A DNA stretch of 51,337 bases. Source: a virus. Under the pieces are notes generated by a model. That model worked only from the letters and a program-made list of their open reading frames with translations. It did no database searches and was not told the DNA's origin. Shown one piece after another: positions 5,976 to 51,337 of the stretch. Position 1 is the first letter of the stretch. The number at the start of each line of letters is the position of its first letter. The position numbers were made by a program, and so were the translations under genes. The stretch is from IMG/VR virus record IMGVR_UViG_3300036846_000218, positions 1 to 51,337 of that record. One strand, 5' to 3'.

Positions 5976-6100
5976 CGGGATTCACCGTAGCGCAGAAAGG
6001 GGAGTGCTCAGAGTTACCAAAAAACTCACAGCGCAGAGACGGTGAGTGAACGGGGAACCGGACCTAAACCACCCGGTTCCCAACAATGAAAGTTGATTAA

Positions 6101-6313
6101 ATGAGTACAAAAGCAAAAGGCGATTCGTGTTGGGAGAAAGCAGCGCCCGATGAACCGTTGTTCGTTCTTAGAGCGCAAGACGTAACCGCACCGGATGTAA
6201 TTGAGTTTTGGATAAGTCTTAATCCACAAATTCAATTCACACCCAAAGGATACGAAGCGCAAGAGCTAGCAAATGCCATGCGTCAATGGCAAAACAGAAA
6301 GCTTGCGGACTAA
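6101..6313 (+). CDS. Small conserved phage protein, function unknown
   Basis: 70 aa. DEPLFVLRAQDVTAPDVIEFW resembles a recurrent small phage protein pattern. Confidence 0.55.
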   Translation: MSTKAKGDSCWEKAAPDEPLFVLRAQDVTAPDVIEFWISLNPQIQFTPKGYEAQELANAMRQWQNRKLAD

Positions 6314-39430: not shown

Positions 39431-39712
39431 GGATTTTTACCTCCATTTCCCCCTTGCGGGAATTATTCAATTGAGAACGAATAGTACGCTCGTAATGCAG
39501 CGAAAGCAAGTTGAATCGTTACAAAAGTTCACAATGTTGTAAACCATTGTTAATTCAACAGTTGCTTAATTTCCTCCCACTTTTCCACAAGCAAGACACC
39601 CATACAGTTGCAAACATGAAATCATGAACAACCCATTGCCTAACGGTTTGACGCCATAATGACGTCATAGTAGAACAACGCCTTTGTGGATGTACTATAG
39701 CCAGTTACCACT

Positions 39713-39748
39713 CTGTACAAGCCTGTACAAGCCTGTACAAGCCTGTAC
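39713..39748. repeat. Tandem decamer array (CTGTACAAGC)x3 plus a partial fourth copy
   Basis: Perfect copies at 39713, 39723 and 39733, with CTGTAC at 39743. TGTACTA also occurs at 39691 and 39744. Each unit contains the palindrome TGTACA. Confidence 0.95.
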
Positions 39749-39758
39749 TAACTTTGTG

Positions 39759-39956
39759 TTAGTTTATCCGGCGAATGGGGATGGTACGTTCATCCAGAAA
39801 CCTATCAATGTCCTTGCGCCTGATCTTGCGAAAGTGACCGATCTTGACGCTAGGAATCTCCCGATTGTAGACCCATCTCCACAGCGAATCCACTTTCATA
39901 CCTAACAACATTGCAGCTTCGGGAACACTATACAATTCCTGTTCGATAGGACACAT
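39759..39956 (-). CDS. xis: Excisionase-family / MerR-type helix-turn-helix DNA-binding protein
   Basis: 65 aa from the ATG at 39956. YSVPEAAMLLGMKVDSLWRWVYNREIPSVKIGHFRKIRRKDIDRFL is the classic Xis-type HTH pattern. Confidence 0.7.
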   Translation of the reverse strand: MCPIEQELYSVPEAAMLLGMKVDSLWRWVYNREIPSVKIGHFRKIRRKDIDRFLDERTIPIRRIN

Positions 39957-40492
39957 TGTTTTCAACCTCGCACTGGCGGAAGCCCCGCCTAGAAAAACGC
40001 AATCCAGACCTTAGCGGTAGTTTGCTTTGGGGTCAAGAAAAAAAAAATCGAAACGGTCCCGATGCCCGAATCACTAGACCACATGTAGACCACGGAGGAA
40101 TCAGAGTCCCGAAAAAGTCCCGAACTCTGCAACTTCAAAACACTCAACTACCGTTTAATCAACGGTTTAACCTACTGGGTTACTCTGATGCCCCATCATA
40201 CTACGCGTGATTTTGTAGTACCCATGTAGTAGGGGTGTAAACACCCGGTAGTGCAGGGTTAAACCACATGCCTTCATACCCTTACAACCTAGTGATCACC
40301 ACTCGTTCACATATATTCTAGCCTTCCAAAAAAGTCAACTCCAAAGTTTTCCAAATCCAAGTCCCAAAAAATTTGGGAGTTTTTGGTTATAGTGATCTTC
40401 GATATAACGATCTTCGATAGAGCGAGCATGAGCGGTACCCCCATAGGGTACGAAAAGCAAATATCGTTGCACGAATGCAACGCTTTGAACAT

Positions 40493-40551
40493 GAAAAACG
40501 GGGTGCTCTCCCAGTGGCAATTAGACAGATTCCCTCTGGAGTAGCACCCCG
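40493..40551 (-). terminator. Rho-independent terminator after 40576..41205
   Basis: The - strand reads CGGGGTGCTACTCCAG, a loop, CTGGGAGAGCACCCCG, then TTTTTCATG. Confidence 0.65.
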
Positions 40552-40575
40552 CTTTCAGCAACACCCGGTGGAGTG

Positions 40576-41340: not shown

Positions 41341-41574
41341 CTACTGCTTTTTTACCTTTACCGGTCCGCCTGTTCTCTCTTCCAAAACGGAAATTCTGCC
41401 TTCATGATCGATCATGTACTGAACCAGCAAATCAACCTGTTTGGAAATTGAATCAAGTCTACCGTTAACACCGTCGATCTTGCCATCAATCTTGGCATTG
41501 ATATACAGAATCAGAATTGCCGTCTGTCCTGTAAACAATCCCGCAATTGCAAAGAACAATTGAGCGTTTGTCAC
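41341..41574 (-). CDS. Small TM + coiled-coil protein (paralog 2 of 5)
   Basis: 77 aa. MTNAQLFFAIAGLFTGQTAILILYI is followed by KIDGKIDGVNGRLDSISKQVD. Confidence 0.7.
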   Translation of the reverse strand: MTNAQLFFAIAGLFTGQTAILILYINAKIDGKIDGVNGRLDSISKQVDLLVQYMIDHEGRISVLEERTGGPVKVKKQ

Positions 41575-41595: not shown

Positions 41596-41784
41596 TCATT
41601 TCTGCTTCAGCGTTGCAATGTCTGCTTCGTGCCGCCCTAGATCGTGGTAGAACCGTCGCAAGTCCGCTTCAATCACAATCAAACGAGAGTTGAGCGAATT
41701 AAAACCGTGCATCATGAATCCCATAACAACAGCGATTTCAGCACTAACCACCCCAAGGATGGTAAACATTTGAGTCGTTGTCAT
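41596..41784 (-). CDS. Small TM + coiled-coil protein (paralog 3 of 5)
   Basis: 62 aa. MTTTQMFTILGVVSAEIAVVMGFMM is followed by a helical, charged tail. Confidence 0.7.
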   Translation of the reverse strand: MTTTQMFTILGVVSAEIAVVMGFMMHGFNSLNSRLIVIEADLRRFYHDLGRHEADIATLKQK

Positions 41785-41933
41785 TCTTTCTCCTTTGTTA
41801 AGCGATCTAGCTTCAAACCCACCGCTTTGATTTCATCGGCCAAACGATCAATGTGATTGGATAAGTACAATAACCTTAACCACTCAGAACCGAAAATTGC
41901 AACGATTAAAACGGTCAGTTGAATATTCGGCAT
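41781..41933 (-). CDS. Small TM + coiled-coil protein (paralog 4 of 5; below the ORF-track cutoff)
   Basis: 50 aa: MPNIQLTVLIVAIFGSEWLRLLYLSNHIDRLADEIKAVGLKLDRLTKEKE. Its stop overlaps the next ATG (ATGA at 41781-41784). Confidence 0.55.
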   Translation of the reverse strand: MPNIQLTVLIVAIFGSEWLRLLYLSNHIDRLADEIKAVGLKLDRLTKEKE

Positions 41934-41954
41934 GTCGTTTTGTTTCCTCCCCAC

Positions 41955-42218: not shown

Positions 42219-42453
42219 TCATTCTCCTATCCATACAGCGTTTTCAAAGTCAACTTTTACAATTGCATTTGTATTCAGGAAACCTGCCCATGAAAATTAT
42301 GATTACCGGTCGTAAAGCAGCGTAAGACATAGCATCAGCCCCGTACAACAGCGTTTGCAAAGTGCTTAAGAAAGTCACCGGGACGTGTAGGCTCACCGTG
42401 CAAGACACCGTACACCCAATCAACAATGTCCGGTGCATCCGTGCTTAGGTTTT

Positions 42454-43596
42454 TCATTGAATCGGTCCCTTAACAGTGTTAAACATTTCTTTCCAGCCTT
42501 CAAACGCTTTCTCAACTACGCGAATACGATCTTCTCTGAATGAGTGCAAATAAACATCCATCATCTTGTCGTTAACGTGACCCATCATCGCCTTGATATC
42601 AGCCTTCGTTGCGTGTTTGCCAATCATGGTGCCAAACGTGTGTCTAAGATCGTGCCAACGACATTCAATGCCAGCAGCTTTCTTTGCGCCCTTCCAAACA
42701 CCAAAACTTTTTGTTGGAATAGTGGGCAGCGTTTTGTAAATGCCATAACCCCCGCCCTTGACGTGACCGTACCGTTGCGATGGAAACACGTAATGATCAG
42801 GCTTCGCTTCGGGAAACTTCGATTTCCATTCCAGCAATACTTCTACCGCATCCAACATTGGAATGAAACGTTCCCCTGCTCTTGTCTTCGTGGTTTTCCG
42901 TTGCACAAGAAACTGACGATTTTCAAAATCAACAGACTTCCACTGCAAGTTGAGCAATTCCTTCCGGCGTACACCGGAGAGCACCGAAACCTGTATAGCG
43001 GTTTGAAACGCTTCTGAACGCGATTCACCGGCAATCTTAAACAACATCAGAAGTTCCCTTTTGGACAACGGCTTACCCATTGTTTCCTCTTCGGAGAACA
43101 TATGAAAGGTGCTGCCTTCTTTCAGCCGGTTCCACAGCTTATGCTCAACAAACAATTGCCGAACGGAAGTCAACTCGATGTTGATTGTGCGATCAGCCGG
43201 GGGTTTACCGAACTGCGTGACTTGCGTCTTGCGGTGATTCTGGTACCGCCGCAAGTCTTTGCCGTTAATATCCGTAATCAGCATCTCACCAAAAAACTCA
43301 ATTAAATGCGGCATTGATGTGCGGTGCATGATATAGGTCTTGCCCTTGTCACCACCCCAACCAGCTTTATTCAATTCAACAAATTCTTCCAACGCAAATC
43401 TAAATAGCTTCGGTGAACGCGAAGCTGGAACCATATCATTGCCGCCCCGAATGAGAGACGTGTAAAGGTTATTTAATACCTCTTGAGCAACATACTTCAC
43501 TTTGGTTTTGGTACTCTGCGCATATCGGATACCCTGAAACTGAAATTCATAGTGCCAGTACCCATTTTTGTGTTGTTTCAACCTAGGCATTGCCAT
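42454..43596 (-). CDS. int: Tyrosine integrase (site-specific recombinase)
   Basis: 380 aa. Catalytic landmarks are LSGVRRKELLNL (Arg), RWHDLRHTFGT (H-x-x-R) and MMDVYLH (Tyr). Confidence 0.85.
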   Translation of the reverse strand: MAMPRLKQHKNGYWHYEFQFQGIRYAQSTKTKVKYVAQEVLNNLYTSLIRGGNDMVPASRSPKLFRFALEEFVELNKAGWGGDKGKTYIMHRTSMPHLIEFFGEMLITDINGKDLRRYQNHRKTQVTQFGKPPADRTINIELTSVRQLFVEHKLWNRLKEGSTFHMFSEEETMGKPLSKRELLMLFKIAGESRSEAFQTAIQVSVLSGVRRKELLNLQWKSVDFENRQFLVQRKTTKTRAGERFIPMLDAVEVLLEWKSKFPEAKPDHYVFPSQRYGHVKGGGYGIYKTLPTIPTKSFGVWKGAKKAAGIECRWHDLRHTFGTMIGKHATKADIKAMMGHVNDKMMDVYLHSFREDRIRVVEKAFEGWKEMFNTVKGPIQ

Positions 43597-43885
43597 CGAT
43601 TAACTCTCTCACTTTCCTCTGAATTACGGTAATCGCATTACAAATTGAATTAGTAGCAGCAATTATGGCGTTAAGTTGAATAGTGCTTTCTGCTGTTAAA
43701 GCCCTAACCTCAAGTTCCTTAACGCCAATATCCTTATACAACAAAGACGTGTAAACCTGATCCAAAATTCGTTGAGCGTCATGCTTCACTTTGGTTCTGG
43801 TGCTTTTGCGGTACGGTACACCTTTGTACTCGAAAGCGTAAAACCAGTATCCGTTTTCATGCTGATGCAACTTCGGCATTGCCAT
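43583..43885 (-). CDS. Stand-alone paralog of the integrase N-terminal domain + coiled-coil tail
   Basis: 100 aa. MAMPKLHQHENGYWFYAFEYKGVPYRKSTRTKVKHDAQRILDQVYTSL vs the integrase MAMPRLKQHKNGYWHYEFQFQGIRYAQSTKTKVKYVAQEVLNNLYTSL gives 28 of 48 identical residues by eye. Its 3-prime end overlaps the int start by 14 nt. Confidence 0.7.
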   Translation of the reverse strand: MAMPKLHQHENGYWFYAFEYKGVPYRKSTRTKVKHDAQRILDQVYTSLLYKDIGVKELEVRALTAESTIQLNAIIAATNSICNAITVIQRKVRELIDGNA

Positions 43886-43891
43886 TTTTGC

Positions 43892-44071
43892 TTAGTATCC
43901 CTTCGGGAATTTTAGTTGAATATTGCAGCTACGGCAGAAACACATTTTCGCGTTCTGCTCACCAATTTCAGTCACCATCCAAAACAACGACCCGCCCGGT
44001 GACGGTATCTCCACACCGCAAACAGGACATTGCAGTTCAACCGATACAATCGTTACCACTGCTGTTTTCAT
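43892..44071 (-). CDS. Small zinc-ribbon protein
   Basis: 59 aa from MKTAVV. Contains CPVCG...CRSC. Confidence 0.5.
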   Translation of the reverse strand: MKTAVVTIVSVELQCPVCGVEIPSPGGSLFWMVTEIGEQNAKMCFCRSCNIQLKFPKGY

Positions 44072-44169
44072 CAATGCCCCGCCCTTCTGCCTACAAAGAC
44101 TACGCGCAAGACTGACCCGGCAATGAAAATCCAAACGAGAATGTTCCCTAGTAGTTCACCCATTTTTGA

Positions 44170-44373
44170 TTACCCTTTAACCAGCGTTATTTTGCTGTCG
44201 ATTTTTGATTCAAGCGTGTCAAAACGTTGATTCATTTGTTTAGCCATTTCATCGAACTGTCGGTTCATTCTCCCTTCAAGACCGTCGATTTTCTTGTCGA
44301 TACCATCAAACTGCCGGTAGAGCATTGCCAAGAATGCCCCGCCTAACAACGCCAAAAGAATGTTAGTTACCAT
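44170..44373 (-). CDS. Small TM + coiled-coil protein (paralog 5 of 5)
   Basis: 67 aa. MVTNILLALLGGAFLAMLY is followed by GIDKKIDGLEGRMNRQFDEMAKQMNQRFDTLESKID. Confidence 0.65.
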   Translation of the reverse strand: MVTNILLALLGGAFLAMLYRQFDGIDKKIDGLEGRMNRQFDEMAKQMNQRFDTLESKIDSKITLVKG

Positions 44374-51149: not shown

Positions 51150-51337
51150 CAATTGCGATGGTTCGGGACCGCACACAAGCGGAACTGTCAAGTTGCTTCC
51201 GACCGGTACCACTAACACAGATGGCAACTTGATTCTTTGTCAAGCTTGCTTCAACCACGAATTGCAGTGGAGAGCAAAGCGAAACATTGAAATCGGTCGG
51301 GACGTTTTCAAGTTGCCAGTATGGGAAGAATTGAAAG
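51139..51337 (+). CDS. 5-prime part of a junction-spanning 69-aa Cys-containing protein (continues at 128-138)
   Basis: MQNNNCDGSGPHTSGTVKLLPTGTTNTDGNLILCQACFNHELQW... runs off the window end inside the terminal repeat. The stop codon is found at 136-138. Confidence 0.6.
   Translation, partial: MQNNNCDGSGPHTSGTVKLLPTGTTNTDGNLILCQACFNHELQWRAKRNIEIGRDVFKLPVWEELK
51211..51337. repeat. Terminal direct repeat, copy 2 (identical to 1-127)
   Basis: Same 127-bp string as the window start, compared by eye block by block. Confidence 0.95.

Follow-up and report, generated by a model that had tools for sequence, protein, structure and literature searches.

What does a free copy of an integrase's DNA-binding head do, if anything, when it is encoded directly upstream of a complete integrase that already carries one? 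The question is raised by the IMG/VR virus record IMGVR_UViG_3300036846_000218, which we analysed over its whole stretch of 51,337 nt (the window). On its minus strand, a 100-codon open reading frame (ORF), here called ORF100, runs into the start of a tyrosine integrase gene (int). A preliminary description of this DNA, made from the letters alone, had taken ORF100 for a stand-alone duplicate of the Int N-terminal domain that might compete for or bridge arm-type sites and so act as a directionality or dosage factor. As set out below, ORF100 is a real feature that sets a known domain in an unusual architecture, and it is confined to one sampled lineage; from its sequence, a role in the control of integration can be proposed.

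Homology and fold of the ORF100 head

ORF100 begins with an ATG and encodes a protein of 100 aa, and in the ORF list it has the same sequence as was quoted in the preliminary description. In a pairwise BLASTP comparison it aligns with Int without gaps over residues 1-49, with 28/49 identical residues, 41/49 positives and an E value of 9e-20, and nothing similar is found beyond residue 49. The 28/48 identity that had been counted by eye between the two N-termini is therefore a significant similarity and not a chance one. The nucleotide strings that had been reported as common to both genes are also present, ATGGCAATGCC at both starts and AACCAAAGTGAAG internally.

To place the head among integrases more widely, we used a hidden Markov model (HMM) of arm-binding (AB) domains, made from 37 more distant integrase N-termini, with the integrase clade of ORF100 left out. 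The ORF100 head scores 34.1 bits against this model (E 4e-11), and the three real integrases of its clade score 43.2, 36.6 and 34.9 bits. The nearly invariant residues of the family, Y16, F18, A37 and L48, are all kept. Judged by its ungapped alignment, its conserved columns and an HMM score near those of functional clade members, the head shows no decay. The curated Pfam AB models (clan CL0081) gave no match at E <= 1 over residues 1-49 of either ORF100 or full-length Int; since Pfam commonly misses AB domains (PMC8138268), this miss dents the assignment only slightly.

The predicted structures of the two N-termini agree with the alignment. AlphaFold places strands at residues 6-8, 14-20 and 23-28 in both proteins, with identical boundaries, followed by a helix that starts at residue 34. 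In ORF100 (mean pLDDT 91.9; 90-97 in the head) this helix is unbroken to residue 98, whereas in Int (pLDDT 86.3, from a 40-sequence alignment) it spans residues 34-51 and gives way to a disordered linker (53-59) and then to the domains for core binding and catalysis. The AB domain of Int itself thus comprises aa 1-51. In Foldseek, Int matches lambda Int (1z1b, 376 columns) and Tn1549 Int over its full length with an E value of about 1e-10, and from this match and the modelled layout Int is an ordinary AB-domain integrase in the sense of PMC8138268. For ORF100, the top matches in the PDB include the lambda Int N-domain (1z1b, 1kjk and 2wcc) and AP2 domains (6sy0 and 7et4), all weak at E >= 0.2, and in BFVD phage integrases match best (rmsd 1.4 A across 50 aa, probability 1.0, E 0.025), accompanied by AP2-domain proteins and HNH endonucleases that bear an AP2 domain. 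These matches are to the expected sorts of protein, though a domain this short yields weak Foldseek statistics. What ORF100 and Int have in common is exactly the integrase AB (AP2-like) domain of three strands and a helix. The claim of a stand-alone copy of the integrase N-terminal domain is supported, with a modelled fold of the lambda/Tn916 type. It had also been said that ORF100 lacks both the core-binding and the catalytic domain and ends in a helical tail. This holds as well, since the Pfam Phage_integrase family matches only the 380-aa protein and not ORF100, and the tail is predicted to be helical.

When compared with the AB domains of heterobivalent tyrosine integrases (lambda Int residues 1-64, PDB 1KJK/2WCC; Tn916 Int; clan CL0081, AP2-like), the ORF100 head is likewise about 50 aa long, with a three-stranded antiparallel sheet resting on a C-terminal helix. 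It is also significantly homologous to the N-termini of AB integrases and lies beside an integrase gene (PMC8138268). It differs in that it forms part of a separate polypeptide without linker, core-binding or catalytic domain, and in a helix that is about 47 residues longer and makes a zipper-like stalk. The small AP2-like proteins and AP2-bearing HNH endonucleases of phages (BFVD R9TRZ8 and A0A8S5U4P5) employ the same small fold as an independent or accessory DNA-binding module, but these proteins have no detectable sequence kinship with ORF100, are uncharacterised, are not known upstream of integrases, and none of them combines the head with a long helix. Outside phages, the AB-domain profile matches the mitoribosomal protein mS109 (PDB 8a22 chain Yc, E 6e-5) and the ORF100 model weakly resembles the T. 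gondii mitoribosomal chains 9g6k_LG, 9hqv_Yn and 9i05_XH, which suggests that AP2-like modules occur in mitoribosomal proteins.

The tail, the junction with int and the age of the head

The remaining half of ORF100 is an orphan. The tail has zero homologues in 1.84e9 protein representatives and zero matches in Pfam or PHROG. It reads as coding sequence nonetheless: it is open in its own frame alone, the other five being full of stops, and its codon-usage score of 0.243 compares with 0.19+-0.085 for genes in frame and -0.395+-0.20 off frame. This value ranks at the 73rd percentile among in-frame windows of real genes, and 0.0% of the off-frame windows attain it. Head and tail differ in G+C content at third codon positions (GC3), with values of 0.57 and 0.33 respectively, a contrast that fits two origins for the two parts. 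Large hydrophobic residues occupy 10/14 of the a/d positions in the heptad pattern of the tail (p = 0.006 against shuffles). The pattern is cleanest at residues 71-96, where the a/d residues are L71, I74, T78, I81, I85, I88, V92 and L95, and we infer that ORF100 oligomerises through this zipper.

Two sources for the tail were considered, of which the first is not supported and the second is rejected. Compared with the gene found at this position in the closest relative (locus L001, described below), whose C-terminal part it might have been, it gives a Smith-Waterman score with p = 0.12 against shuffles and a BLASTP match of 7 aa only. As a frameshifted remnant of an integrase, it should resemble integrase sequence in some frame, and blastn and tblastx searches against the window and the related loci were empty, the five other frames being stop-filled. 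The preliminary description had allowed that ORF100 might be a pseudogene remnant; the frame is intact, the head is conserved, and no remainder of an integrase follows residue 49 by either search.

The head is not a recent tandem duplication of the 5' end of int. Over the 147 nt (49 codons) that they share, ORF100 and int are 66% identical in nucleotides and 57% identical in amino acids, and the proportion of synonymous differences is saturated (pS 0.76) against a nonsynonymous proportion (pN) of 0.24. The head is about equidistant from the integrases of the window (28/49 identical), of L001 (31/49) and of a further related locus, L002 (29/49), while the N-termini of the window and L001 integrases, at 39/49, are much closer to each other than to it. 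This pattern points to an old paralogue that predates the split between the window and L001 or, more simply, to a module from another integrase of the same clade; the searches returned no donor integrase for the head. What was called a duplicate is thus a homologous copy of the Int N-terminus, and the part of that claim which made it a recent duplicate of its own integrase does not stand.

ORF100 sits in a co-directional, tightly packed string of genes. A Zn-ribbon-like gene that is conserved in L001 ends upstream of it, with the stop codon 6 nt ahead of the ORF100 ATG, and at the other end ORF100 overlaps int by 14 nt, as had been reported and as the ORF list and the sequence confirm, with its TAG stop falling across int codons 4-5. 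The slot is filled, with zero leftover non-coding DNA. Promoter and terminator scans gave matches no more numerous than in shuffles. A programmed frameshift that would join ORF100 to Int is unlikely, because a +1 shift would be needed within the 14 nt without a slippery motif; a TAA in the int frame lies two codons upstream of the int ATG. The coordinates of these features are collected in Table 1.

Table 1. Positions of ORF100, its parts and the associated genes in the window
Feature	Coordinates	Strand	Basis
ORF100: AB-domain head and helical tail, 100 codons	43583..43885	(-)	ORF list, sequence
ORF100 head, codons 1-49: AP2-like AB domain, homologous to Int N-terminus	43739..43885	(-)	BLASTP E 9e-20
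ORF100 tail, codons 50-100 and stop: orphan helical extension	43583..43738	(-)	no homologue; single continuous helix to residue 98 in AlphaFold model
ORF100 residues 71-96: four-heptad Ile/Leu zipper-like stretch	43598..43675	(-)	heptad analysis
int: complete tyrosine integrase, 380 aa	42454..43596	(-)	Pfam PF00589 E 5.5e-22; PHROG 1
Overlap of ORF100 3' end and int 5' end, 14 nt, ATGGCAATGCCTAG	43583..43596	(-)	ORF list, sequence
Zn-ribbon-like small gene, directly upstream of ORF100	43892..44134	(-)	CPxCG...CxxC motifs align with L001 4015..4218
Excisionase-type gene, HTH_17	39759..39956/39965	(-)	Pfam PF12728 E 8.2e-13; PHROG 66 'excisionase and transcriptional regulator' E 4.6e-9

Relatives of ORF100 and its possible role

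ORF100 and int recur, identical, in three further assemblies made independently, two of them from SRA runs and one from a JGI metagenome, in which ORF100 is also called as a gene; the source samples are JGI 3300036791, SRR11835973 and SRR11833939. An assembly artefact is unlikely, as the four independent assemblies agree. The word-indexed search of 5.8e9 clusters found ORF100 itself only. Exhaustive phmmer over the 1.84e9 representatives found ORF100 itself, its integrase clade (P0004, over residues 3-49, E 1.7e-7) and the proteins P0081, P0079 and P0080, and no stand-alone homologue. P0079 and P0080 are repeat proteins whose scores are built from nine and five matched stretches in tandem repeats, and we read these matches as spurious. 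P0081 (L008 3001-3543, GCA_054044085.1) is a 180-aa ORF with two tandem AB-like domains and the apparent start of a core-binding domain, after which it stops; it looks like a broken integrase whose arm-binding domain has been duplicated. Scans of IMG/VR, scans of two JGI metagenome contig sets and blastn against phage GenBank gave zero further relatives.

A profile search did recover at least 519 short ORFs that carry this kind of AB domain. Those sampled, P0122 and P0090 among them, turned out to be 5' pieces of broken integrase genes with the remainder in neighbouring ORFs or frames, and a family of stand-alone AB proteins was rejected on these grounds. Like such fragments, ORF100 is a short ORF that starts with an AB domain. 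Unlike them, it is unrelated to integrase after residue 49 in every frame, and it is followed by a complete integrase with an AB domain of its own.

The closest relative, L001, encodes an Int that is 87% identical and keeps both the Zn-ribbon gene and int, with an unrelated 67-aa helical ORF in the slot between them; high nucleotide similarity to the window sets in again at 43608, which is 12 nt upstream of the int ATG. The same slot holds a DUF3846 gene in L002 and an unrelated 79-aa ORF in L007, and at the P0006 locus int is divergently placed and adjoins an HTH_17 gene. The slot is mosaic and exchangeable. Because the unrelated small genes of L001, L002 and L007 likewise terminate no more than a few nt away from the int start, the tight coupling belongs to the int operon rather than to ORF100. 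The translational coupling proposed earlier therefore keeps its 14-nt overlap, and loses the notion that this junction is peculiar to ORF100. It had been suggested to look for ORFs consisting of an Int N-terminus alone upstream of related integrases, and none was found in L001, L002, L007, the P0006 locus or the global searches. By these sequence comparisons ORF100 cannot be a conserved accessory gene or directionality factor of the integrase clade, as no relative carries such an ORF.

We favour, tentatively and with a probability of roughly 45%, the reading that ORF100 is a real, lineage-restricted chimeric gene whose product occupies arm-type repeats non-catalytically and thereby damps or reshapes the complexes of Int with att. 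The 5' 147 nt would be an AB module derived from an integrase that belongs to the same clade but has diverged, joined in frame and exactly at the end of the domain helix to unrelated coding sequence. This sequence would lengthen the helix by about 50 residues and finish in a short Ile/Leu zipper. In the exchangeable slot between the Zn-ribbon gene and int, ORF100 would be transcribed and translated whenever int is, and co-expression is expected from its start 6 nt after the preceding stop and its overlap with int. The analysis shows the homology, the fold, the intact state of the gene, its gene-like codon usage, its old divergence and its absence from relatives; that it is expressed, forms oligomers, binds DNA and in any way affects recombination is what we infer. 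The product would be a zipper-oligomerised DNA-binding head without core-binding or catalytic domain, and such a free multimeric AB protein could sit on the arm-type repeats without catalysis, so that Int-att complexes would be attenuated or reshaped. Occupation of arm repeats is what the behaviour of lambda AB domains leads one to expect, as these attach to the P and P' arm sites, assemble into a tight tetramer and touch the core-binding domains next to them (PMC1807965).

In the literature that we searched, AB domains are described as parts of integrases, and they are not known as free regulatory proteins. The nearest parallels come from transposases, where regulators made of the DNA-binding domain only include IS911 OrfA (a helix-turn-helix (HTH) with a leucine zipper), IS1 InsA, Tn5 Inh and the KP repressor of the P element. 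ORF100 is like these in having a site-recognition domain without catalysis, encoded 5' of the enzyme, and its zipper could serve multimerisation as in IS911 OrfA. The transposase regulators arise from the gene of the enzyme itself by frameshifting or an alternative start and hence carry an identical DNA-binding domain, whereas ORF100 is a separate gene whose head is only 57% identical. The enzymes also belong to different families, a tyrosine recombinase here and DDE transposases there.

Several observations weigh against this modulator role. Although residues 14, 16, 18, 20, 23 and 25 of the head, which should face its core, are conserved between ORF100 and Int, residues 15, 17, 19, 24 and 26, which should face the DNA, all differ. 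The alignment thus suggests a retained fold with a probable DNA-reading face unlike that of Int; competition for the same arm sites is not assured, and with such differences a target for ORF100 in its own genome is not guaranteed. The Foldseek E values for the 50-aa head are weak (>= 0.025). ORF100 has no clear Shine-Dalgarno sequence at the optimal distance; a GGGA motif lies 12 nt upstream. Its architecture is absent from the 1.84e9 representatives, the 5.8e9-cluster index, IMG/VR and the JGI contigs, and since the sole relative at 87% Int identity is without it, there is no comparative evidence of selection on the fused gene. The low ratio of nonsynonymous to synonymous change in the head could date wholly from its time inside a full integrase. 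Finally, the gene just downstream of int is frameshifted, so that this region tolerates damage.

The main rival, which we regard as only slightly less probable, is that ORF100 is a neutral recombination scar. A cassette exchange or a deletion between tandem integrases would have fused the first 147 nt of an old int in frame, by chance, to the 3' portion of a small gene next to it. The resulting ORF may be translated owing to its position, have no selected function and eventually be lost. A singleton in every database searched, a closest relative that is without it and a mosaic slot all fit such an accident, as do the commonness of 5' integrase fragments (the short AB-containing ORFs above, the sampled ones being broken genes), the differing GC3 of head and tail and the frameshifted neighbour downstream of int; the signs of purifying selection can all be inherited from two parental genes. 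It accounts less readily for a junction that falls exactly at the AB-domain boundary with the helix continuous, for an undecayed head, and for a slot that ORF100 fills without leftover non-coding DNA. Nor is the tail significantly similar to the slot gene of L001, and no donor of the tail was identified. Phage genomes usually purge useless DNA, which also counts against a scar.

Two further accounts would give ORF100 another duty. As a dedicated recombination directionality factor it would bind or bridge the arm sites of Int in the manner of Xis and set the balance of integration and excision. It does adjoin int in the same orientation, it shares with lambda Xis, P2 Cox and the HTH_17/MerR-type excisionases a small size, a mildly basic character and a place near int, and its head is the domain by which lambda-type systems read their arm sites (PMC8138268). 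This proposal is nevertheless very improbable: the phage already has a canonical HTH_17 excisionase gene, ORF100 has neither a winged-helix or HTH fold (its model is a beta-sheet with a long helix) nor any Pfam or PHROG match to excisionase or HTH families, the integrases of the same clade in L001, L002 and L007 work without it, and its specificity-face residues appear from the alignment to differ from those of Int. We give just as little credence to a DNA-binding protein whose target is something other than its own att, such as a repressor of the int operon or a decoy on the arm sites of competing phages with a donor-type integrase. The intact head with a surface unlike that of Int, its equal closeness to other integrases of the clade and the existence of small stand-alone AP2-like proteins in phage structure libraries would suit this account; against it, the analysis found neither direct evidence nor a target motif, nor a sampled donor integrase. 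That the phage took its AB domain from a related integrase, gave it a zipper stalk and uses it as a free-standing regulator strikes us as unlikely, be it a new, non-Xis modulator of its own integration and excision or a decoy on the arm sites of competing phages with the donor-type integrase, whose lysogeny or escape it would block.

AB domains give the integrases of phages and integrative and conjugative elements directionality and regulation. If ORF100 is functional, an AB-only protein with an oligomerisation stalk would be a new class of accessory factor for tyrosine recombinases, parallel to the domain-only transposase inhibitors, and could also be of use for tuning integrase tools in a simple way. 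Even as a scar it provides a clean snapshot of integrase-module exchange at domain boundaries and shows how new phage genes can arise, here by fusion of a DNA-binding module to an unrelated helix.

Excisionase gene, att region and genome context

A separate Xis-type gene had been placed at 39759..39956, and the HTH_17 and PHROG 66 matches confirm it; by these matches it is the phage's ordinary candidate directionality factor. Just downstream of this gene, at 39706-39745, lie three head-to-tail copies of the 10-nt unit TACAAGCCTG, which could be protein-binding repeats. Candidate arm-type repeats exist; a trial arm-site motif, TGTAGWMCC, gave 2 matches in the search against 0.8 expected, which is not significant. 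The non-coding stretch of about 600 nt at 39966-40575, partly conserved in L001, is the most likely location of attP. It contains a poly-A tract at 40036-40047, whose length varies among assemblies, and a 27-nt imperfect inverted repeat at 40495-40555. Between the window and a second assembly, L004, there are 29 differences over 12.6 kb, of which 27 fall within 39473-39864 (about 390 nt) and none in ORF100 or int. The cluster spans the 3' portion of the excisionase-type gene as well as the tandem TACAAGCCTG repeats, and it looks like a recombination patch or a hypervariable spot.

The gene directly downstream of int, at 42250-42457 on the minus strand, is broken in two by one inserted nucleotide in a run of G (ACGGGGCT, compared with TCGGGCT in L001) where L001 has a single 76-aa ORF, and it could be a frameshifted pseudogene or a slippage site. 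Small ORFs of 57-77 aa flank int at 41341-41574, 41596-41784, 41781-41954 and 44170-44373, all on the minus strand. By eye, each combines a hydrophobic segment at its N-terminus with a charged, helical region after it, and one has an L001 orthologue at 6027-6263; small membrane proteins that form a paralogous family may be encoded here.

No tRNA gene was found in the window, and no nucleotide relatives among deposited phages. The two ends of the window, 1-127 and 51211-51337, form an exact direct repeat of 127 nt, and L004 reads through the junction. The window represents the complete genome of a temperate phage, circularly assembled and about 51.2 kb long. On the identical contigs, Pfam marks a terminase, a portal, a Mu-F-like protein, a VRR-NUC nuclease and a primase/helicase-like protein, together with the tyrosine integrase and HTH_17.

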